Assembly: GCA_016215405.1 (NCBI GenBank)
Contig: JACRJQ010000005.1
Location: 75,560 to 139,559 of the forward strand
DNA from: Candidatus Tayloriibacteriota bacterium
GTDB lineage: Bacteria; Patescibacteriota; Minisyncoccia; Phycocordibacterales; UBA6065
Length of the DNA: 64,000 nt
Direction: 5' to 3'
The notes beneath the pieces were generated by a model. It searched no databases and had not been told where the DNA came from. It was given only the letters and a program-made list of their open reading frames with translations. This document shows, in pieces, positions 2,177 through 29,006 of this stretch. Numbering within the stretch: position 1 is the stretch's first letter; every line of letters starts with the position of its first letter. Both the position numbers and the translations under genes were made by a program.

Positions 2177-4868
2177 CCATTTCACGACCAAAGCGAAAGA
2201 AGCGATCAGGCGCGCCCACGAGCTCGCTATCGAGCGCGGGCAAAACCACGTGAATCCGCTGCATCTCCTCTCTGCCCTTATCCTGCAGGAGGAGAGCATG
2301 GTCACGGCCATACTCGAAAAGCTCGACGTCGACCTCATACTCCTTTCGGACTCGCTCGCGGAGTCTCTCGAGGGAGGCGGTCCGGCAGCGACCCTGTCGC
2401 AGTCCTACCAGCTCTATCTCACGCCCGAGCTCGCCTCTGCTATGGAGAACTCATCCAAAGTCGCGGCGGCCCTTAAGGACGAGTTCATATCGACGGAGCA
2501 CCTCTTTGTCGCTCTCCTCGAGGTGCCCTCTCCCGTGATCGAGATCATGGGCAGGTTCCGCGTGAACAAGCAGAACGTATTGAGAGTGCTCGAAGAGCTG
2601 CGCTCGGCGAAATCCACGGAAGCGGTCGCTTCAAAGAAGCCTCGCGCTCTCCTTAAGTACACGAAGAGCCTCACGAAGATGGCGACAGAGAACAAGCTCG
2701 ACCCCGTGATCGGCCGCGACAGCGAGATAAACCGCATCATTCAGATCCTTTCTCGCAGGACGAAGAACAACCCGATCCTCATAGGAGAGGCCGGCGTAGG
2801 AAAGACCGCTATAGTAGAAGGCCTCGCAATCCGCATGGCCCAAGGCGACGTGCCCGAGTCCCTTAAAGACAAGGAGCTCGTATCGCTCGATCTCGGCCTC
2901 CTCGTCGCCGGCACCAAATACCGCGGAGAGTTCGAAGAGCGCCTCAAGAACATCATGAAGGAGATCGAGAGGAGCGAAGGGAAGGTCATCGTATTCATAG
3001 ACGAGATCCATACGATCGTCGGCGCCGGAGCCGCCGAAGGCTCTATCGACGCGTCGAATATGCTCAAGCCCGCTTTGGCGCGCGGCGAGATGCGCGCGAT
3101 CGGGGCGACGACCTTGAAGGAGTATCAGAAGCACGTGGAGAAAGACCCTGCGCTCACGAGGCGCTTCCAGCCCGTATATGTCGCCGAGCCGTCCGTCGAG
3201 GATGCCATCGCCATCCTTCGAGGGCTTAAGGAGAAGTACGAGCTCTATCACGGCGTGCGCATCACCGACGACGCCATCGTCGCGGCCGTCAACCTCTCCG
3301 CCCGCTATATCTCCGACAGGTTCTTGCCCGACAAGACGGTCGACCTCATCGACGAGGCTGCGTCTGCGCTCAAGATAGCGCTCGAGTCCAAACCGCCTCT
3401 CCTCGAGGAGACGCATCGAAAGATCATGCGCCTCGAGATAGAGAGGGAGGCCCTGAGAAAGGAGATCGAACTCGCCAAAGACGAGAAGGAGGAGGCGAAG
3501 GCGCCGAAGTCGCGCATAAAGGCGATAGAGAAAGAGATCGCCGACCTGCGCGAGGAGACTCAAGAGCTCGAGCTCAAATGGAAAGGGGAGAAGGAGCTCC
3601 TCACGTCGATAAAGTCGATAAAGAAGGATCTCGAGAAACTGCGCCTCGAAGCCGAGGCGGCAGAGCTCAAGGCGGACCTCGGAAAGGCCGCTGAAATCCG
3701 CTACGGCAAGATACCTGCCCTCGAACGAGACCTCGACGCGAAGATGAAGAAGTTCAAGAAGCTCCAGTCCTCGCGCCGCATCCTCAAGGAGGAGATCACC
3801 GAGCAGGACATCGCCGACGTCGTCTCTAAGTGGACCGGCATCCCGGTGTCGCGGATGATGGAGGAAGAGGCGCAGAAGCTCATGAGGATGGAAGAAGAGC
3901 TCGGCAAGCGCGTGGTGGGGCAGGAAGAGGCGGTCAGAAAGATCGCCGACACCATCCGTCGCGCCCGCGCCGGCATCGCCGACCCGCAAAGGCCTATCGG
4001 ATCGTTCCTTTTCCTCGGGCCTACGGGCGTAGGAAAGACCGAGCTCACCAAAGCTCTTGCGGAGTTCATGTTCAACGACGACAAGGCTCTCGTCCGCGTC
4101 GACATGTCCGAATTCATGGAGAAGCATTCGACTTCGAAGCTCATCGGCGCGCCTCCGGGCTACGTCGGATACGACGAGGGAGGCTCTCTCACGGAGATGG
4201 TGCGCCATCGCCCGTATTCGGTGATACTCTTCGACGAGATAGAGAAGGCGCATCCGGAGGTGTTCAACATCCTCTTGCAGGTCCTAGATAACGGTCGCCT
4301 CACGGATACCAAGGGCCGCGTCGTGAACTTCAAGAACACGGTGATCATCCTTACGTCGAATATCGGCGCGCAGCATATCGATAAGATGGAGAAGCTCGGA
4401 TTCGCCTCCGACAGGGCCGACAAGGCGAAATACGAAGACGTGAAGGGCAAGGTCATGGAGAGCCTCAAGGACTATTTCAGGCCGGAATTCCTCAATCGCC
4501 TCGATTCCATAATCCTCTTCGACGTCCTCTCGCAGGATTCCATAAAGAACATCGTGAAGATCCAGGTCGACCAGGTCATAAAGAGGCTCGCCGAGAAAGA
4601 GATCAGGCTCGACGTCGCGCCTGCGGTCTGCGAATACCTCGCTAAAGAAGGCTACAACCCTCAGTACGGAGCGAGGCCTCTCAAGCGCCTTATCCAGGAG
4701 AAGATACTCACTCCAGTCGCCGGATTCATGATCTCGCAGGGAGTGGGCAAGGGAGGGTCTATCATGGTGGGAGTGAAGGCTGGAGAATTCACATTCGACG
4801 TCAAGAAAGGCAAGAGGCCGATCCCTCTTAAGGGCCTTGGGGAAGAAGAGGTGGAGAAGGTGGGGTAG
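2163..4868 (+). CDS. clpB: ATP-dependent chaperone ClpB (two AAA+ modules plus coiled-coil middle domain)
   Basis: 901 aa with two Walker A sites ([20 protein letters not shown]), a long coiled-coil insert and a Clp N-domain. The motifs read directly. Confidence 0.95.
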
Positions 4869-4997
4869 AGGACTAAGGGGTAAGATTCTCCGCCTACGGC
4901 GGCAGTACAGGTTTCCTATTTTCTCAGACGAATACGTCTTCGAAAATATAGGAGAACCCTTTCGAATCCTGTCCGGACGCTCCGCTGGAGCGTTCTC

Positions 4998-5044
4998 TAC
5001 GCACAAATAGAAAACACCCATTGGGTGTTTTCTATTTGTGCGTA
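4998..5044. terminator. Perfect 22-bp stem with a 3-nt loop between convergent clpB and tRNA-Tyr; it overlaps the tRNA 3' end
   Basis: tacgcacaaatagaaaacaccc att gggtgttttctatttgtgcgta. It is a perfect palindrome and its last 6 nt belong to the tRNA acceptor 3' strand. Confidence 0.5.
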
Positions 5045-7124: not shown

Positions 7125-7742
7125 TCAGTGATTGAATTGCTCTTGTTTGAATATGTGGGCGTCCTTTGGATCGCGGCCAGGAGAGAGGAGAACGATCTCG
7201 GAATTTCCGAAATGGAAGTTCTTGAGCGCGTCCTTCCAATCGATGCCATAGAACGCGGCGTAGATCATCTTGCCGATGTCGCCGTGACAGACGAGCAGGA
7301 CGTTGCCTCCTGCGCGCTCCTTCTGTACGTCCGAGATGAGCTTCTTCGCGCGCTCGATGAGATCGGGAAACGTCTCGGACCCCGGACATTCGGTCACGTA
7401 GGTGACCGTATTCGTCTTTATGATGTGAGGGGAATAGAGCTTTTCGATATCGGATATCTTCCTTCCAGTCATATCCCCGAAATTCCTCTCGATGAGACCG
7501 TCTCGCTTCTCAGGCTTATCGAGGCCTAGATGGTCGGCGATTATCTCTGCCGTCCTGTATGCCCTCGAGAGCGGGGAAGAATATATCTTGTCGAATCTGA
7601 TCCCGGTCTTCTCGAGGTGGAGGGCGAGGTTCTTCGCCTGTTCGATGCCGATCTTTGTCAAAGGGAGGTCGCGGTGCCCGTTGAGGATGCCGTTTACGTT
7701 GTCTTCGTTCTGGCCGTGGCGGACGAGGTAGATGGAAAGCAT
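7125..7742 (-). CDS. Histidine phosphatase family protein (phosphoglycerate-mutase-like)
   Basis: The N-terminus LVRHGQNEDN carries the RHG catalytic motif. Length is 205 aa. Confidence 0.8.
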   Translation of the reverse strand: MLSIYLVRHGQNEDNVNGILNGHRDLPLTKIGIEQAKNLALHLEKTGIRFDKIYSSPLSRAYRTAEIIADHLGLDKPEKRDGLIERNFGDMTGRKISDIEKLYSPHIIKTNTVTYVTECPGSETFPDLIERAKKLISDVQKERAGGNVLLVCHGDIGKMIYAAFYGIDWKDALKNFHFGNSEIVLLSPGRDPKDAHIFKQEQFNH

Positions 7743-7768
7743 GGGGAGTGATTAGGAGATGAGGGAAT

Positions 7769-7788
7769 CGGTCCTTACAGGACCAGTA
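7769..7788. repeat. 20-nt hairpin-forming motif cggtccttacaggaccagta (copy 1 of 2)
   Basis: Exact 20/20 match to 14340..14359. Internal hairpin ggtcc-ttaca-ggacc. It lies between a minus-strand tRNA and the start of the next minus-strand gene. Confidence 0.7.
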
Positions 7789-7835
7789 CCCATGTTTGGA
7801 TATATTTTCGCCTATGGCTCAAATCTGTCTCAAAC

Positions 7836-7855
7836 AGGCTTCGATTCCCTCATCG
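7836..7855 (+). repeat. Sense-orientation partial copy (19/20 nt) of the tRNA-Trp 3' half, inverted relative to the real tRNA
   Basis: gcttcgattccctcatcgcc versus the tRNA 3' half GGTTCGATTCCCTCATCGCC. Together with 7911..7930 it forms a long palindrome with nested hairpins in between. Confidence 0.75.
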
Positions 7856-7910
7856 CCAAAGCAATGATGTTTCGCTCGGACGGCTACCCAGCCGTCCTTG
7901 CGAATCATTG

Positions 7911-14293: not shown

Positions 14294-14339
14294 AGTGTAG
14301 ACTCTACCAGAAATAATCGGAAAGGGAATTTGGGAGGCT

Positions 14340-14359
14340 CGGTCCTTACAGGACCAGTA
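14340..14359. repeat. 20-nt hairpin-forming motif cggtccttacaggaccagta (copy 2 of 2)
   Basis: Identical to 7769..7788 and in the same context, between minus-strand tRNA-Leu and the miaA start. Confidence 0.7.
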
Positions 14360-14425
14360 TCCTGATTGGATGTGTAAGAACGCATGTTCAATCAGGCCTC
14401 GAGTCCCACGCACAAAGCTCCGCTT

Positions 14426-23715: not shown

Positions 23716-23883
23716 AGACCTCTTCTTGCAACGCGGAGTTCGCGGGTGTAGATTTAGGGAGACCTCGGGGCGGCGGCAGTAGGACCTCTCGGGCAAGAAG
23801 CCTTTCGGCATCTAGGGCCTGCTTGGAACCGAGCCTGCCGCTCCAAGTTCTTCGTTTTTTTGGGCGGTATTCATGTATGTGGG

Positions 23884-23917
23884 CGCGGGCGGGACCTCCT
23901 TGGTCCTGCCCGCCTTT
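23884..23917 (+). promoter_or_regulatory. GC hairpin plus T-run (paralog 2 of 2), 16 nt upstream of the pilin A1 start codon
   Basis: gcgggcgggacc tccttg gtcctgcccgc c tttt. The stem is identical to 23681..23708 with a different loop. Confidence 0.45.
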
Positions 23918-23932
23918 TGTTATACTGGGCGC

Positions 23933-24826
23933 ATGAAGCCTTTCCGCGGACGCTTCGGCGCGCAAAGCGGGTTCACCCTCATAGAGCTCCTCGTCGTGAT
24001 ATCGATAATATCGCTCCTTTCGTCTGTCGTCCTCTCGCAGCTTAACGCGGCGAGGGAGAAGGGGAGGCTCGGCAGCGCGAAGCAGTTCGCGGCCCAAGTC
24101 GACCGCGTGGCGGGAGATAGGGCTGTCGGTATCTGGGAGCTCGACGAGTGCTCCGGCGCGGCCGCGGCGGATAGGTCTGGAAACGGGAACAACGCTTCGC
24201 TTTCAGGCAGCCCTTCATGGCTTTCAGATACTCCCGACTCGACAGGCTGCTCTCTGAGCCTTAACGGCTCGACCCAAGGCGCTCTCGTGCCTCATGCGCC
24301 ATCCCTAGATCTCACAGGCGACATGACCTTTTCCATATGGTTCTATGCCAACGCGTCGAGCTGGCCCGCGAGCTGGCAGTCCCTCATGTCGAAAGGAAAC
24401 GCGACTCCGCGCAACTATTTTATGAACGTGATGAGCGGGGAGAGCGTCGTCGCGAACGATTGCTCCGACCAGACCGGGGGCTTTCAGTTCGGCTACCACG
24501 ACGGGACGACTTTCCGGCTCGTCGATATAAACGCGAGCTCTGTGCCGACCCAGCGGTGGGTGAACGCTGTCGGGGTGATATCCGCGAATGGGGCTAATCG
24601 CGACGTGAAGCTCTATATAGACGGACAGTTGAGGGCTTCGGCTTTGTGCTCTAACGCCCCTACGTCGAATACGGTGCCTCTCTCGATCGGCTCTATCCAG
24701 AATTCGATCGAGTTCTTCAACGGGAGAATAGATAAGGTCCGCCTATTCGAAAAATCGCTTACAGCGTCCGAAGTAGGCAGGATGTATGCCGCAGAGGCTC
24801 CGAAATATGAATTCGCATATGAATAG
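23933..24826 (+). CDS. Type IV pilin-like protein A1 (prepilin leader/methylation motif plus LamG-type Laminin_G_3-like domain)
   Basis: The class III leader ends ...G|FTLIELLVVISIISLLSSVVLSQLNAAREKGR. The mature part carries the WELDECSG....DRSGNGNNASL signature. Start moved to the internal Met; the track ORF begins at 23873. Confidence 0.8.
   Translation: MKPFRGRFGAQSGFTLIELLVVISIISLLSSVVLSQLNAAREKGRLGSAKQFAAQVDRVAGDRAVGIWELDECSGAAAADRSGNGNNASLSGSPSWLSDTPDSTGCSLSLNGSTQGALVPHAPSLDLTGDMTFSIWFYANASSWPASWQSLMSKGNATPRNYFMNVMSGESVVANDCSDQTGGFQFGYHDGTTFRLVDINASSVPTQRWVNAVGVISANGANRDVKLYIDGQLRASALCSNAPTSNTVPLSIGSIQNSIEFFNGRIDKVRLFEKSLTASEVGRMYAAEAPKYEFAYE
23971..24062 (+). repeat. 92-nt perfect direct repeat shared by pilin A1 and A2; the second copy is at 24834..24925
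   Basis: ttcaccctcatagagctcctcgtcgtgatatcgataatatcgctcctttcgtctgtcgtcctctcgcagcttaacgcggcgagggagaaggg is identical in both genes. Confidence 0.9.
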
Positions 24827-25637
24827 AAGAGCCTTCACCCTCATAGAGCTCCTCGTCGTGATATCGATAATATCGCTCCTTTCGTCTGTCGTCCTCTCGC
24901 AGCTTAACGCGGCGAGGGAGAAGGGAAGATTGGGCGCCGCCCGCCATTTTGCGGCCCAGGTCGAGCATACCGCGGGAGACCTCGTCGTGGGCATGTGGAG
25001 CTTCGACGAGTGCGCGGGGCTTTCCACCGCCGATAGGTCCGGGTTCGGGAACAACGGAGTCCTTCAGAATATGGCGGGCACGTCCGAGTGGTCGTCCGAT
25101 ACGCCGTCAGGTACGGGATGCTCGCTCCTCCTTGACGGCACGAACGACTACGTCTCCGTCCCGGATTCTGCGAGCCTCGATCTCAGCGGCGTGGCGACCT
25201 TGTCTATCTGGGTAAAATCGAGCGGCACGAACGCATATTCCGGATTCATGAATAAGACGAGCGCCCTTACCGGATATCAATTCGGCATCGGCGCTTCGAA
25301 TAGCATCCGCGGGGATCTCTATAACGGCACGACCTATATAAGCCCGATGCACACGACGAACGTCCTCGATGGAAAATGGCATCATATCGCGGTGGCGTAT
25401 GACGGCGTCGCCGCAAAGGTCTATGTCGACGGGATCGCGGGCGGCGCGGTCGCGGGATCAGGCTTCGTCACGGCTAACAACGCCTCTTTCGTCATAGGCA
25501 ACGACGTGTGCTGCGGAGGGAGATTCTTTAACGGCAGGATAGACGAGGCGAGGGTATTCGCCAAGGCTCTGACGGCGAAAGAGGTAGAAAGGATCTACGC
25601 GTCTGAGAAAAAGGGGTCCCAGGTCGCCGGCATCTGA
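24807..25637 (+). CDS. Type IV pilin-like protein A2 (prepilin N-terminus plus LamG-type domain)
   Basis: AFTLIELLVVISIISLLSSVVLSQLNAAREKGR and WSFDECAGLSTADRSGFGNNGVL. It overlaps the A1 stop. Confidence 0.8.
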   Translation: MNSHMNRRAFTLIELLVVISIISLLSSVVLSQLNAAREKGRLGAARHFAAQVEHTAGDLVVGMWSFDECAGLSTADRSGFGNNGVLQNMAGTSEWSSDTPSGTGCSLLLDGTNDYVSVPDSASLDLSGVATLSIWVKSSGTNAYSGFMNKTSALTGYQFGIGASNSIRGDLYNGTTYISPMHTTNVLDGKWHHIAVAYDGVAAKVYVDGIAGGAVAGSGFVTANNASFVIGNDVCCGGRFFNGRIDEARVFAKALTAKEVERIYASEKKGSQVAGI

Positions 25638-25649
25638 TATACTTTCCAT

Positions 25650-26684
25650 ATGTCACACGAAGTCCTCTATAGGAAATACAGGCCCCAGAACTTCAAGGAG
25701 GTGATCGGCCAGGATTCGGTCGTAAAGGCCCTCAAGGGCGCGATAGAGTCGGGAGCGGTCGCTCACGCCTATCTTTTCGCGGGCTCTCGCGGCATCGGCA
25801 AGACTTCGATCGCGCGAATATTCGCGAACGAGATAGGGACGAGCCCGAACGACGTCTATGAGATAGACGCGGCGTCGAACCGCGGCATCGACGATATCCG
25901 AGCGCTCCGCGACGCGGTCGCAACGCTTCCGTTCGAGTCCAAATTTAAAGTCTATATCATCGACGAAGTCCACATGCTCACGAAGGAGGCCTTTAACGCG
26001 CTCCTCAAGACCCTCGAAGAGCCGCCGAAGCATGTCGTATTCATCCTCGCTACGACCGAGGTCCATAAGCTCCCTGAGACCATCGTCTCGCGCTGCCAGG
26101 TGTTCGAGTTCAAGCGCCCGACCCTCGAGATACTCAAGGACGTCGTCACGACCATCGCCAAAAAGGAAGGCTTCTCGATCGAGCCTTCGGCGGCAGAGCT
26201 CGTAGCCCTCGTGGGCGATGGGTCGTTCCGCGATACTCACGGGACCCTCGAGCGCGTCATCGCCGGCATAAGCGGCAAGAAGATATCGAAAGAGGATGTC
26301 GAGGAAGCGACAGGCGCTCCGAAATCAGAGCTCGTCCGCGGATTCGTCCTCGCCCTCGCGAACAAGGATTCGAAGGCCGCGTTCGATTCTTTGGCCAAGC
26401 TGCGCGCGAAGTCGTTCGACCCGAAGCTCTTCCTCGAGCTATCCGTATCCCTCGTCCGTCTCGCCCTCTTCGTGAAGATGGGCGTATCGAGCGACCTTGT
26501 CGATCAGGCATCGGACGAAGACAAGGCGTTTTTCAAAGACGTCTCGGCGAAAGTCGATTCGAAGCTCCTGCGCTCTCTCCTCGGCGCATTCGACTATATC
26601 GGCGTCTCTCCGATCCGCGAACTGCCTCTCGAGCTCGCCGTGCTCGACATAGCAGGGGAGAAGGAGCAGAGGCTTTTCGCCTAG
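25650..26684 (+). CDS. dnaX: DNA polymerase III subunit gamma/tau (short form, no tau extension)
   Basis: YRPQNFKEVIGQ, Walker A GSRGIGKTSIA, DEVHMLTKEAFNALLKTLEEPP and the sensor TIVSRCQVFEF. Confidence 0.9.
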   Translation: MSHEVLYRKYRPQNFKEVIGQDSVVKALKGAIESGAVAHAYLFAGSRGIGKTSIARIFANEIGTSPNDVYEIDAASNRGIDDIRALRDAVATLPFESKFKVYIIDEVHMLTKEAFNALLKTLEEPPKHVVFILATTEVHKLPETIVSRCQVFEFKRPTLEILKDVVTTIAKKEGFSIEPSAAELVALVGDGSFRDTHGTLERVIAGISGKKISKEDVEEATGAPKSELVRGFVLALANKDSKAAFDSLAKLRAKSFDPKLFLELSVSLVRLALFVKMGVSSDLVDQASDEDKAFFKDVSAKVDSKLLRSLLGAFDYIGVSPIRELPLELAVLDIAGEKEQRLFA

Positions 26685-26702
26685 ATCGAATCGAGAAATA
26701 AA

Positions 26703-26726
26703 CGCCTCAACCGGTTGAGGTGTTTG
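26703..26726. terminator. Palindromic terminator between dnaX and the convergent phosphatase gene
   Basis: acgcctcaaccggttgaggtgttt. Confidence 0.6.
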
Positions 26727-26738
26727 GAATGGCCAGGG

Positions 26739-27338
26739 TTAGCTATTTTTGGGCGTGAATTCAAAGACGAGCCCTTCGGATCTTAGATAAGAGAAATTGC
26801 TATCACAGACTTCGAATCCGACGAACGAGCAGTCGCCGATCTCTTTGAGCTCGCCCCATTTGAGATAGTCGCGAAAGAGGACCCTAAGAGGCCCTCCATG
26901 GGTCACGACCGCTACGCTCTCGTATCCCGATCCTAGGATGCGGCCGAACCCCGCGATGACGCGATCGCTGAAATCCTCGTAGGATTCAGCTCCTTCGATC
27001 GTGTTGAGCCTGTCTTTGAGCGCCTCGACGAGCGTCTGGTGCGATCTTTTCGCATCCTCCTTTTTCATCCCTGTAAGGATGCCGTATTGGTTGCGCTCGC
27101 GGATGTCGCTTCGCGGTTCGGTTGGCGCGCCCGTCTGCGCCGCTATCGCCGCGCCGGTCTCTCTCGCTCTCGAAAGGGAGCTCGTGAATATCTTCTCTAT
27201 GCCCTCGCTCTTGAGCTTGAGCGCGACCTGCTCAGACTGCTCGCGTCCCTTCTCGGAAAGGCTGTCGTCATAATCGCCTCCGTAGCGGTTCTCGATATCT
27301 CCTGTCGTCTCTCCGTGTCTTAGAAAAATATCTTCATA
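26739..27338 (-). pseudogene. Histidine phosphatase family gene with an apparent -1 frameshift in an A5/T5 homopolymer (pseudogene or sequencing error)
   Basis: The minus strand reads ATG AAG ATA TTT TTC TAA (MKIFF*). The +2 frame continues as FLRHGETTGD...SSLSRARETG and runs into the track ORF 26739..27068 (MKKEDAKRS...VVTHGGPLRV). One extra T would give an intact MKIFFLRHGET N-terminus. Confidence 0.55.
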
Positions 27339-27437
27339 GCCGATGATTTATAGTGGTGAGATGGGGTGTAGCGCGCAGAAGGCGCATCATCAGTATACGG
27401 ATTATAGGAATGTGTTGCGAGCAGCACGACCTTGAGT

Positions 27438-27746
27438 CTATTTCTTGGTTCTTTTGTCGAGTATCGCTCGTACAGAGGGGCTTAGCGGCTTGTCGGTGCG
27501 GTGTGTGCAGCCGATCCAGCAGCAGGGCCTCCGCTTGCCTTCCTTGAGCTTTTTTACGAGTCTTTCTATATGTTCCTTTCTCGTCTCCTCCTTTTTTACG
27601 GAGACGGTCCAGCATATCCACTCGTTGCGGGAGAGCGGCGTGAGGAGCTCCCATGCCCTGAGTGCCGTCTTATTCGAAACAAGCGCCTTTCGCATGTCCG
27701 TTGGCACGGTATGCGCTGTGCCGCCTGAGATATTCTTATCGGCCAT
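27438..27746 (-). CDS. YdeI/OmdA-family-like small protein
   Basis: VPTDMRKALVSNKTALRAWELLTPLSRNEWICW...KEETRKEHIERLVKKLKEGKRRP follows the YdeI pattern VPeeL.eAL..np.a...f..Lsps.rreyl.Wi..AK..eTR. Start set to the internal Met. Confidence 0.5.
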   Translation of the reverse strand: MADKNISGGTAHTVPTDMRKALVSNKTALRAWELLTPLSRNEWICWTVSVKKEETRKEHIERLVKKLKEGKRRPCCWIGCTHRTDKPLSPSVRAILDKRTKK

Positions 27747-27903
27747 ATATCTTATTGTACGCTTTTTGAGCAGGTTGGGGTGCGGGTAAGTCTGGACTTG
27801 GACCGCGAATACGCTTATCGCCCTCGACTCGAATCTCGCCGTCGCTCGATTCGGTCTGGGCACCGCCTCGCTCCCGCCGGAAGCCGTCGGGTCCTGCTCC
27901 GGC

Positions 27904-27949
27904 GTTCGATTCCAAACGCGATGCATTTCCATGCATCGCTGTCCGGCAA
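27904..27949 (+). repeat. Sense-orientation partial copy of the tRNA-Gln 3' half, split by a 25-nt hairpin
   Basis: gttcgattccaa (12 nt), then the hairpin gcgatgcat-ttcc-atgcatcgc, then gtccggcaa. It matches the tRNA 3' half GGTTCGATTCCAAGTCCGGCAA. The arm gtccggcaact/agttgccggac pairs with the real tRNA acceptor end. Confidence 0.65.
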
Positions 27950-27970
27950 CTACTCGCCGCAGCTTCTAGT

Positions 27971-28039
27971 TGCCGGACTTGGAATCGAACCAAGATTCTA
28001 GGCTCCAAAGGCCCATGTCCTACCATTAGACGATCCGGC
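27971..28039 (-). tRNA. tRNA-Gln (anticodon TTG); no encoded CCA
   Basis: Reverse complement GCCGGAT..TCTAATGGTAGGA..TGGGC-CTTTGGA-GCCTA..CTTGGTTCGATTCCAAGTCCGGCA. The 7-nt loop geometry puts TTG at positions 34-36. Pro (TGG) would need a shifted loop and is less likely. Confidence 0.75.
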
Positions 28040-28076
28040 AATATGTGGCCTTAAAAGTACACCAAAAGAGCTTTAA

Positions 28077-29006
28077 TTGAAAGTTTTGGATGCTATAGTA
28101 AATGGTATGAATAAGATAATCGCATACATAGTCGTCCTTCTCGTCCTTATCGGAGGTTTCTATGCCCTTAATAATTACATATATGAGAAAAAGCAGGCCG
28201 TAGCCGCGCCTTATCCGCGCGACGCGGAATACGTGATTGACGGCAAGCGCGTAAAGCTCTCCGACGGCACGTTCGAGGAGGAGGGTGTCGTCACGACCTA
28301 CTTTGGAAACGAGCTGGCAGAGGATCTCAACGGAGACGGCGCGATCGATACGGCGCTTCTCCTCACGCAAACCAAAGAGGGGAGTCCAGAGATCTTGTTC
28401 TATGCGGTCGCGGCTATCTATACCGAGAGAGGCTATGTCGGATCCGATGGTTTCCTCCTCGGCGACAGAATCGCGCCGCAGACGATCGTGGTCAGCCAGA
28501 ATCCGAGGCACAAGAATGTGATCGCGGTCAATTATGCCGAAAGGAAGCCTGGGGAGTCGTTCGACGTGCGCGCGAGCATGGGAAAGAGCGCGTATCTCAA
28601 GCTCGACCCTGATTCTATGCGATGGGCGATCGTCGAGCCGGATTTCGAAGGCGAGGCCGATCCATCTCGCATGACCCTCGGCATGAAGGACTGGGTGTGG
28701 ATGAAGGCTCTCTATAACGACGGTCGCGAGATCGCACCAAAGGTTCCCGGCAAGTTCGGCATATCGTTTGCAAAGGACGGCCGATACTCTCTAGCGACGG
28801 ATTGCAATTCGATGGGCGGGTCTTATGTCGCAGAGGGTAGAAAGATAGCTTTTAGCCAGGGCATGTCGACCCTTATGTACTGCGAAGGGTCTCAGGAATC
28901 CGAATTCTCTGCGCTCATCCGCGATGTGGAGGGGTACAGCTTCACGTCCAAAGGCGAGCTCGTCCTCGACCTAAAGTTCGACAGCGGGTCGGTGATATTC
29001 AGATAG
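28077..29006 (+). CDS. Membrane-anchored protein with C-terminal META/HslJ-like domain
   Basis: N-terminal TM helix, then C-terminal DCNSMGGSYVAEGRKIAFSQGMSTLMYCEG...GELVLDLKF resembling the META (DUF306/HslJ) domain. Confidence 0.55.
   Translation: MKVLDAIVNGMNKIIAYIVVLLVLIGGFYALNNYIYEKKQAVAAPYPRDAEYVIDGKRVKLSDGTFEEEGVVTTYFGNELAEDLNGDGAIDTALLLTQTKEGSPEILFYAVAAIYTERGYVGSDGFLLGDRIAPQTIVVSQNPRHKNVIAVNYAERKPGESFDVRASMGKSAYLKLDPDSMRWAIVEPDFEGEADPSRMTLGMKDWVWMKALYNDGREIAPKVPGKFGISFAKDGRYSLATDCNSMGGSYVAEGRKIAFSQGMSTLMYCEGSQESEFSALIRDVEGYSFTSKGELVLDLKFDSGSVIFR

Follow-up and report, generated by a model that had tools for sequence, protein, structure and literature searches.

A hairpin-split inverted copy of the tRNA-Gln 3' half in a Patescibacteria genome as the probable arm of a small mobile insertion

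The tRNA-Gln gene and its trailer

The window, by which we mean the whole 64,000-nucleotide stretch of DNA analyzed here, contains a tRNA-Gln(UUG) gene on the minus strand. A 100% dnaX match assigns it to a Candidatus Taylorbacteria (Paceibacterota) MAG. CCA is absent from this gene, and the 3' half of the tRNA, called seg1 below, is the sequence that is found copied 3' of the gene. The minus-strand orientation of the gene places the inverted copy of this half downstream of tRNA-Gln, in its 3' trailer. Read on the minus strand, the tRNA ends in ...GGTTCGATTCCAAGTCCGGCAA, which is followed by CTA and a 14-nt loop and then by the segments seg2a, P2 and seg2b. The locus comprises the following features, given in their order on the minus strand, with the basis of each in brackets.

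27969/27970-28040, minus strand: tRNA-Gln(UUG) gene (ARAGORN; Rfam RF00005, 61.9 bits)
27790-27968, minus strand: whole Gln element, about 180 nt at the 3' end of tRNA-Gln
27953-27966, minus strand: 14-nt apical loop of the stem between seg1 and seg2a, gaagctgcggcgag (sequence)
27941-27952, minus strand: seg2a, the inverted acceptor 3' strand with the discriminator and three trailer bases, TAGTTGCCGGAC (12 nt, 100%)
27916-27940, minus strand: P2, a 25-nt stem-loop, a GCGATGCAT ggaa ATGCATCGC gt (repeat search; family comparison; compensatory changes in metagenome contig L131)
27904-27915, minus strand: seg2b, the inverted T-stem 3' strand with the T-loop, TTGGAATCGAAC (12 nt, 100%)
27876-27903, minus strand: GC-rich hairpin GCCGGAGC...GCTTCCGGC, the first of the family-2 module (folds; kept in L131)
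27820-27875, minus strand: family-2 core, the block GGGAGCGAGGCGGTGCCC and then an inner hairpin (CGAATCGAGC gacg GCGAGATTCG) closed by GCCC/GGGC (folds, L131, alignment A3)
27803-27819, minus strand: GA and the mini-hairpin TAAGCGTATTCGCGG, called P6 (an optional family feature inside the direct copy)
27790-27802, minus strand: seg3, a decayed direct copy of the tRNA 3' half, TCCAAGTCCaGaC versus TCCAAGTCCGGCA in the tRNA (repeat search; better kept in L131)

An earlier note on this DNA had described two segments that together reproduce the tRNA-Gln 3' half in inverted orientation and are split by a clean 9-bp hairpin, and the repeat search bears out both statements. The arms 27904-27915 and 27979-27990 are complementary over 12 nt (100%) and correspond to the T-loop and the T-stem 3' strand, while the arms 27941-27952 and 27967-27978, also 12 nt and 100% complementary, run from G65 to the discriminator and include the trailer bases CTA; the two matched segments are contiguous in the tRNA. 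The intervening hairpin (27918-27926 and 27931-27939) is perfect, with 9 bp and a 4-nt loop, and lies inside exactly 25 nt (27916-27940). A stem between the distal segment and the real acceptor end is likewise present, but it is 12 bp long and not 11 bp as had been stated. Allowing at most one mismatch, the two Gln 12-mers are expected by chance 0.46 and 0.28 times per window, so a chance origin of the inverted arms has a low probability.

The repeat search also returned a direct copy of the Gln acceptor/T junction, TCCAAGTCC, at 27794-27802. Terminator-like sites were absent from positions 27650-28150 around the locus. The Gln apical loop resembles a GAGCGNAGCGA cap found in related elements that do not have a terminator, and this cap motif showed no enrichment within the window. 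Folding, suggested in the earlier note as a check, gave a predicted minimum free energy of -132 kcal/mol for the tRNA and trailer together (z = -5.5), with the tRNA 3' half paired to the inverted copy. The Gln element folded alone gave z = -4.06 for the sense strand and -2.87 for the antisense strand.

Related trailers in the window and in other genomes

Trailers of this kind were found behind all four tRNAs of the 64-kb window (Gln, Tyr, Trp and Leu), all of them on the minus strand. The three sister elements are listed below.

4870-5037, minus strand: tRNA-Tyr element with a terminator hairpin, GTGCGTAG, a 22-nt P2, GGACAGGATTCGAA, a type-B P4 and the P5 variant ACTGCCGCCGTAGGCGGAGA
7755-7910, minus strand: tRNA-Trp element with a contiguous inverted copy GCGATGAGGGAATCGAA, P4, P5 (20-mer at 7768-7787) and the direct copy CGATTCCCTCATCtCC
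14331-14425, minus strand: tRNA-Leu(CAA) element with the inverted copy GTGGGACTCGA, a short P4, P5 (20-mer at 14339-14358) and a decayed direct copy

The tRNA-Tyr trailer also carries its own tRNA 3' half inverted and split, with a 22-nt hairpin between GTGCGTAG and GGACAGGATTCGAA. The Trp and Leu elements have in common the 20-mer ACTGGTCCTGTAAGGACCGA, which is followed in each case by a partial direct copy of the 3' half of the respective tRNA. A P5 hairpin with a UGUAA/GUA loop after ACUG occurs in the Trp, Leu and Tyr elements; this family-1 hairpin is missing from the Gln element.

Exact matches to the 20-mer were found in more than 116 contigs of the genome collection, and the titles among the matches listed were all those of Patescibacteria/CPR metagenome-assembled genomes (MAGs) or of unclassified "bacterium" MAGs. 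Among the matches listed, 88 of 122 copies sit 18-320 nt (mode 100-150) 3' of a tRNA on the same strand, and the preceding tRNAs span 32 anticodons. The remaining copies are mostly truncated by contig ends or lie behind a tRNA-like 3' end not detected by ARAGORN. Since the locus sample was picked by one exact 20-mer, the frequencies derived from it are biased. Within 260 nt downstream, 78 of 92 motif-bearing tRNAs had a stretch of 8 nt or more that matched part of their own last 24 nt exactly in inverted orientation, compared with 17 of 174 in an upstream control, in which the longest match was 9 nt. Most of the tRNAs lacking the motif in the same loci (58 of 82) had no downstream inverted match. 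A YraN-like nuclease was encoded near elements in nine loci.

Across the family, elements are 100-250 nt long, contain no ORF and follow a common order: the tRNA, an optional T1 or a short loop capped by GAGCGNAGCGA, seg2a, P2, seg2b, P4, P5 and seg3. T1 is an optional terminator-like hairpin, and many members show an A-run, a GC stem and a T-run right after the tRNA. Seg2b complements the T-stem 3' strand and the T-loop; it ends in NNTCGAA and varies with the loop of its own tRNA. P4 is a long hairpin with conserved GA/GAA internal loops, and P5 has the form ACUG-stem-UGUAA-stem. Seg3 is a direct copy that extends from C56/G57 to the discriminator and sometimes further, with the start at C56/G57 seen in 87 elements.

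In about 85% of the elements, the hairpin P2 sits exactly where the acceptor part meets the T part. It measures 22-26 nt (mode 25), with a perfect stem of 8-9 bp and the flanks A...G(T), and it is missing in about 15%, the Trp and Leu elements of the window among them. The sequences of P2 are unrelated between elements, yet always paired. Most of the 48 elements with cleanly delimited inverted segments show the split architecture, with hairpins of the same length and of unrelated sequence, and T1 and P2 are both hypervariable but near-perfectly paired, with only 2% G.U. The Gln P2 fits this pattern exactly, so the feature that had been read as an insertion corresponds to a standard part of the element. 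The related suggestion that the 25-nt hairpin is an independent repeat put into an older copy found no support: a second copy of the 22-nt Gln hairpin is absent from the window, even when three mismatches are allowed, and the same slot holds a hairpin in about 85% of the family. Sequence comparison indicates that P2 is a standard structural part of the element and not a secondary insertion.

Neighboring tRNAs that had not been selected by the 20-mer revealed a second type of module, composed of the GCCGGAGC hairpin, GCGAGGCGGGGTCGCG, a hairpin, CGTGACCGA and seg3. We define family 1 by P4 and ACUG-stem-UGUAA-stem-CGA, and family 2 by the GCCGGAGC hairpin and GCGAGGCGGGGUCG...GUGACCGA. The Gln element has the family-2 order of seg2, module, optional P6 and seg3. 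The block GAAAGCCGGAGC in its GC-rich hairpin is common to other family-2 elements, and a loose alignment (A3) shows that GAA(A/C)GCCGGAGC and GCGAGGCGG(G/T)G(T/C)C are common to Gln and eight other elements. The optional mini-hairpin TAAGCGTAYTCGCGG of several members is present in the Gln element too, and the P6 sequence TAAGCGTACTCGCGG is identical in L053, L094, L022, L010 and L131. Because its 3' closing block is GGGCGA instead of GTGACCGA, we file Gln as a divergent member of family 2, a family that is less sampled than family 1 and in which L131 is the single close homolog found for the Gln element.

These trailers apparently form a large, undescribed family specific to Patescibacteria. 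In searches against Rfam 15, run with permissive E-values for the Gln and Trp regions and with gathering scores for the whole window and ten "orphan" loci, only tRNA and tmRNA reached the threshold. No description of the element was found in the literature, which was searched for the motif text as well; group I introns in the anticodon loops of Patescibacteria tRNAs, the topic of PMC13011429, are unrelated to the trailer element. Among IMG/VR viral contigs the exact 20-mer had no matches, and a degenerate P5 pattern had seven, all of them chance matches within coding sequence.

Insertion, decay and structure of the elements

Filled and empty sites could be compared directly at two tRNA genes. 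At tRNA-Val, the element of locus L091 ends in CGAATCCTCTACCGCCCAC, followed by AAGAA...GCCTCCACGACTTG, and in the empty locus L083 the same flank lies directly after the tRNA; the direct repeat at the L091 insertion is the 19-nt CGAATCCTCTACCGCCCAC. At tRNA-Gly, L090 and L095 repeat the filled/empty pattern, with the element having brought its own terminator. These comparisons show the element to be an insertion whose direct repeat derives from the target and begins in the T-loop. The earlier note had proposed that the split copy, or an insertion into it, arose by a discrete event. This is correct for the whole trailer of about 180 nt, which is an insertion as judged from the filled and empty sites and from its absence in four closer relatives, but not for the hairpin, which is no secondary insertion.

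Conservation of the split copy in related genomes, on which the earlier note had made its reading depend, was found in metagenome contig L131. A metagenome scan with the pattern TTGCCGGAC-N15-35-TTGGAATCGAA, which is too short for a database of this kind, gave 65 matches, of which 64 were chance and one, L131, was genuine. This contig has the same split inverted copy. Its tRNA and element are about 90% identical to those of the window, P2 differs by two compensatory pairs, and the flanks past seg3 are unrelated. The dnaX genes of L131 and the window are only 65% identical in protein and 71% in nucleotide sequence, and the GC content of the L131 locus is 44% compared with 64% for the element. 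Loci with the same tRNA-Gln 3' half and no element were found in closer relatives, namely L001 (dnaX 88% identical), L194/195 (87%), L196/197 (84%) and L004 (81%). The distribution of the element is patchy and incongruent.

Several loci contain more complex arrangements. Tandem arrays occur in L059, L066, L042, L072 and L119. In L069, about 1 kb of cargo with a pterin-dehydratase-like ORF lies between two elements with identical seg2a-P2-seg2b, and in L023 a 3.7-kb island with a KilA-N protein is bounded by a 39-nt repeat of P5 and the direct copy. Among the 12 element pairs with modules at least 85% identical, 11 stand behind different tRNAs, with unrelated P2 hairpins. An integrase domain was absent from the cargo ORFs of L023, and no recurrent recombinase was evident by eye in the 22 most recurrent ORF clusters around 116 loci, these clusters being without domain annotation. 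Inspection of cargo and ORF clusters thus revealed no recombinase, transposase or reverse transcriptase in the elements or recurrently beside them. Circular or excised forms were likewise not observed.

The origin of the inverted segments can be read from the G.U positions of the tRNA stems. At these positions, agreement of seg2 with the complement of the tRNA 3' strand outnumbers agreement with the 5' strand by about 27 to 3, a ratio obtained by hand inspection of cleanly registered single-wobble cases since the raw script tally was inflated by register errors in the T-loop. Seg2 also often runs on into the complement of the trailer or the terminator. Taken together, the 3'-strand complement at G.U positions and the continuation into the trailer argue that seg2 comes from the 3' half and not from a duplicated tRNA, and the former observation rules out a duplicated 5' half as the source of the inverted copy. 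A retroelement primer-binding site, which is complementary to the 3' 18 nt of the mature tRNA with its CCA, was considered as well and rejected, because the complement runs into the genomic trailer (CTA/TAG) and not into CCA, spans the whole T-loop and is split by P2.

Mismatches to the tRNA in the acceptor part amount to 24% in the inverted copy and 30% in the direct copy, which are similar rates, and the two sets are independent. Wobbles account for about 17-21% of non-Watson-Crick positions. Independent decay with few wobbles suggests that the copies are born perfect and then drift, in which case pairing in the outer helix would be needed at most at insertion. The inner part (NNTCGAA, P4 and P5) remains conserved. 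When wobbles are included, seg2 pairs at 90% of positions with seg1 and at 71% with seg3.

Alignment A2, made of 46 family-1 cores, has a consensus of P3 (seg2b with seg3), P4 and P5. In this consensus the paired cells make up 92.6%, and compensatory changes are seen at 25 of 28 pairs; no shuffle out of 500 reached this level and no slid register came close. The P5 stems covary as GGTCC/GGACC, GAACC/GGTTC, GAGTC/GACTC, GATCC/GGATC, GAAGC/GCTTC, GGTCTC/GAGACC and CCGCC/GGCGG. In P4, 71 G.U oppositions were counted versus 18 A.C, an excess which indicates that it is the sense strand that folds, either as RNA or as top-strand single-stranded DNA. Covariation in the aligned sequences indicates that the module is structurally constrained on the sense strand; its conservation and G.U bias would suit a DNA site and a functional RNA equally well. 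In the modeled pairing, seg2a-P2-seg2b together with a 3'-half copy would have the topology of a tRNA, with an acceptor stem, an excursion in the place of the D and anticodon arms and a T stem, and with the module replacing the T-loop.

Interpretation and comparison with known systems

We consider it probable, by a modest degree, that a non-autonomous mobile insertion of about 180 nt lies at the 3' end of tRNA-Gln and that the split inverted copy forms its arm nearest the tRNA, with a mechanism that we infer. Such an insertion would restore the tRNA 3' half and would often bring its own terminator. It would carry along that same half in inverted orientation, as a rule broken by P2 at the acceptor/T junction, then the conserved structured module and, last, the displaced 3' half of the tRNA in direct orientation. 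Either direct copy could pair with the inverted one on the sense strand to form a putative three-way junction with acceptor/T-arm topology and with the module in place of the T-loop. Integration may proceed by recombination within the block of identity that extends from the T-loop to the 3' end. As one candidate route, a trans-acting recombinase would recognise a folded site of att type, by analogy with CTX-phi attP(+) and attC. Another candidate is homology-driven insertion after DNA uptake, in which the tRNA and seg3 would supply the homology on the two sides. The element may require its inverted copy when it moves or when a module RNA is processed, and the copy could decay later.

The hairpins that belong to the element alternate with segments specific to the tRNA, so that neither simple cut-and-paste nor an integrase model explains how each new tRNA comes to have its own inverted copy. 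One tentative extension, which we hold to be possible though not the likelier outcome, is that the elements are tiny parasites of tRNA genes without a recombinase, whose direct and inverted target copies fold into a mimic of the acceptor/T arm. They would be self-retargeting, possibly guided by RNA or mobilised by tRNA-processing enzymes, and the target-matching segments would be re-templated when the module reaches a different tRNA.

Other explanations account for parts of these data. The trailer could be a host-encoded, vertically inherited cis-acting RNA that is co-transcribed with the tRNA and only appears to be mobile; through pairing of its inverted copy with the tRNA 3' half or with the direct copy downstream, it could act in folding, 3' processing or decay of read-through pre-tRNA, or as a tRNA-like handle by which RNase P or RNase Z would release the module RNA. 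Such a role would agree with the covariation of the module and the 4:1 preference for G.U over A.C on the sense strand, with the GA/GAA internal loops and conserved loop sequences, and with the predicted fold that pairs the tRNA 3' half with the inverted copy (-132 kcal/mol, z = -5.5). The order seg2a-P2-seg2b mirrors that of the tRNA itself (acceptor 5' strand, excursion, T-stem 5' strand), and no terminator separates tRNA-Gln from its element. However, vertical inheritance is difficult to reconcile with an element that four closer relatives lack behind the same tRNA and that a distant relative of anomalous GC content has, or with filled and empty sites, tandem arrays and cargo-bearing copies. 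The cis-acting RNA is likewise opposed by the 58 of 82 motif-lacking tRNAs without a downstream inverted match, by the strong terminator-like hairpin ahead of the module in most members and by the neutral decay of pairing in the acceptor part. We regard this explanation as unlikely. That the tRNA gene simply has a common intrinsic terminator or RNA-stability hairpin, into which the acceptor strand happens to fall, is an alternative that draws on the A-run, GC stem and T-run straight after the tRNA in many members. The Gln locus has no terminator-like site, however, and a terminator has no need of complementarity that reaches the T-loop, of the conserved module or of the direct copy after it, which leaves this alternative with very little probability.

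The terminator palindromes also enter a different explanation, in which replication produced the arrangement passively. Switches of template at the terminator palindrome and at the self-complementary T-loop core (TTCGAA/TCGA) would yield a direct-inverted-direct triplication, and quasi-palindrome correction would keep the hairpins perfect, with no element or function involved. Turnarounds at the terminator loop and at the T-loop would amount to two such switches; the hypervariable and almost perfectly paired T1 and P2, with 2% G.U, fit correction of this kind, and in many members the palindrome is seamless from the acceptor strand through the terminator. Template switching nevertheless leaves unexplained why a conserved module of 80-100 nt, in two families, is always found at the junction of the inverted and direct copies, why the position and flanks of P2 are constant, why near-identical modules stand behind different tRNAs in different genomes, and why distant genomes share about 90% identity; we judge it to be quite improbable. 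A single local accident, that is an inverted pseudo-copy of the tRNA-Gln 3' half that was later split by an independent 25-nt hairpin repeat, would account for inverted segments that are exactly contiguous in the tRNA and for the clean hairpin in the 25 nt between them. The hairpin is not repeated in the window, though, the same split occurs behind tRNA-Tyr and in most of the 48 delimited elements with unrelated hairpins, and L131 shares it with compensatory changes, so that an accident of this type is scarcely credible.

If the mobile insertion favored here is real, a large share of Patescibacteria (CPR) tRNA genes carry an undescribed hairpin-rich mobile insert, and the annotation of tRNA 3' flanks, terminators and "intergenic" RNA motifs in Patescibacteria would be affected. 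In the element, site-specific insertion into tRNA genes is combined with a conserved module of RNA-like structure, although the two normally occur apart. The arms differ from one tRNA to the next and the module stays constant, and the way in which the arms arise could reveal a new form of target choice or copying. The 20-mer and the architecture also offer a simple means of marking horizontal transfer and tRNA-linked hot spots in MAGs of the CPR.

Among known small elements, the trailer resembles miniature inverted-repeat transposable elements (MITEs) in being small, ORF-less and hairpin-rich, in having several copies per genome (four in the 64-kb window) and in varying in presence among relatives. 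Unlike in MITEs, whose terminal inverted repeats are conserved between copies and come from a parent transposon, its "terminal inverted repeats" are local copies of the target tRNA that differ from site to site, and its "target duplication" comprises 18-19 nt or more of a functional gene. The distal 178-bp repeats of E. coli tyrT, source of the RtT RNA (Rfam RF00391), are co-transcribed and processed. Like these, the elements described here are units repeated 3' of a tRNA gene, each with a copy of the tRNA 3' end, and they occur in tandem in L059 and L066. To our knowledge, RtT has no inverted copy and no such module and is confined to one locus in enterobacteria; in further contrast to RtT, the trailer element has no Rfam match.

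Known tRNA-like handles and guides include mascRNA, the external guide sequences of RNase P and the 5'-half-tRNA guides for RNase Z. In a similar manner, seg2a-P2-seg2b would serve as a strand resembling a 5' half, and its predicted pairing with the 3'-half strand would give an acceptor/T helix that such enzymes could recognise. The trailer differs from these RNAs in that it has no T-loop, its helix extends 5 bp into the former loop and its acceptor part decays neutrally.

The forked hairpin of CTX-phi attP(+) and the attC sites of integrons are folded single-stranded recombination sites. The two spaced inverted segments of the trailer can similarly fold on one strand into a mimic of the target site, with the branch and unpaired parts on one strand only, with structure conserved above sequence and, after integration, with an inverted segment that adjoins the hybrid site. 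The folds in question are predicted ones, and the strand bias of wobbles in P4 fits RNA equally. The target also differs, being a tRNA gene and not dif or attI, and the fold has the topology of a tRNA with its branch at the acceptor/T junction.

Integrative elements that insert in tRNA genes comprise prophages, genomic islands and integrative and conjugative elements (ICEs), and insertion at the T-loop sublocation was reportedly exemplified by Williams in 2002. The trailer element differs from these in its size of about 100-250 nt, in the lack of an integrase or any ORF, in an extra inverted copy of the target that is usually split by a hairpin and in its structured module; a single lineage of modules stands behind at least 32 anticodons, and no copies were found in the IMG/VR viral contigs. 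Like the integrative elements, it lies at a tRNA gene, supplies a replacement 3' part and leaves the tRNA intact; the displaced 3' part is left as a direct repeat that starts from the T-loop, and tandem accretion and occasional cargo are seen. By analogy, the restored tRNA and the displaced 3' half in direct repeat would correspond to the classic signature of tRNA-integrating elements, here in a miniature and ORF-less form.

Occupancy of the tRNA genes and their surroundings

The hairpin-rich element behind tRNA-Gln is accompanied by three sister elements in the window, each of which repeats the 3' half of its own tRNA twice, once in inverted and once in direct orientation:
4870-5037, minus strand, tRNA-Tyr sister element
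7755-7910, minus strand, tRNA-Trp sister element
14331-14425, minus strand, tRNA-Leu-CAA sister element

Since Tyr, Trp and Leu-CAA each have one, all tRNA genes within the 64-kb window are occupied (4/4). The window also has two adjoining genes (23873-25637) whose products resemble type IV pilins at the N-terminus (FTLIELLVVISIISLLSSVV), and read by eye their C-terminal domains both look LamG/laminin-G-like. Pilin-like proteins of this kind are typical of Patescibacteria, and they could be relevant to DNA uptake. Among 116 fetched loci, nine have a small ORF within 8 kb of the elements that by eye is a putative YraN/UPF0102-type nuclease (for example in L005, ORF at 4011, plus strand). Its recurrence could reflect ordinary synteny with particular tRNAs, or it could be a lead to a trans-acting enzyme.

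The tRNA-Gln neighbourhood in relatives

Short scars persist behind tRNA-Gln in relatives that lack the element (L001, 18386-18399; L194, about 7530-7561). In L001 the direct copy GGTTCGATTCCAAG follows tRNA-Gln at a distance of about 70 nt, and a hairpin containing GAGCGTAG/GAGTGTAG behind this gene is common to L001 and L194. The scars in these two relatives suggest repeated traffic at tRNA-Gln. L001 also has a diversity-generating retroelement (RVT_1 + bAvd) 1.5-3 kb from this site. The gene neighbourhood was compared between the window (25650-28040) and L004, L131, L194 and L196. In L004 and L131, dnaX is followed directly by tRNA-Gln on the same strand, whereas in the window, L194 and L196 tRNA-Gln lies 1.3-3 kb downstream of dnaX on the opposite strand, with differing intervening genes. 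The dnaX/tRNA-Gln neighbourhood is repeatedly rearranged.

Variant elements, recurrent motifs and tandem arrays

In loci L005-L120, the 11-mer GAGCGNAGCGA occurs at many hairpin tips within elements, including the apex of P4, the long hairpin of the conserved module, and the loop between the tRNA 3' half and its inverted copy. About 28 exact copies were found in these loci versus about 2 expected (for example L069, 582-592 and 660-670); the window itself shows no such enrichment. At the core of this 11-mer is GCGNAGC, the classic GNA mini-hairpin, which has very high stability. Another sequence, CGAAATACATTCGAACTTTGTCCAATACACACCGC, is conserved ahead of tRNA-Ser-type elements without a detected tRNA (L034, L047, L069 at about 1715-1745, and L118). 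It has no Rfam match. Possibly it stems from a third module family and represents a direct copy that has diverged and gained a TTCGAA hairpin by insertion.

Behind tRNA-Glu in L023 lies a 3.7-kb island with terminal inverted repeats of about 55 nt (about 925-995 and 4275-4340), both of which are themselves long hairpins (GCCCGCACGCA...TGCGTGCGGGC). The island codes for a KilA-N protein and has four further small ORFs, none of them matching Pfam significantly. At the right end of the island, the P4 hairpin has the opposite orientation to that of all other copies.

Complete units form long head-to-tail arrays at tRNA-Pro (L059) and tRNA-Arg (L066), each unit comprising a 3'-half copy, a terminator, an inverted copy and the module. 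These arrays are reminiscent of rolling-circle products, or of repeated integration into the displaced copy.
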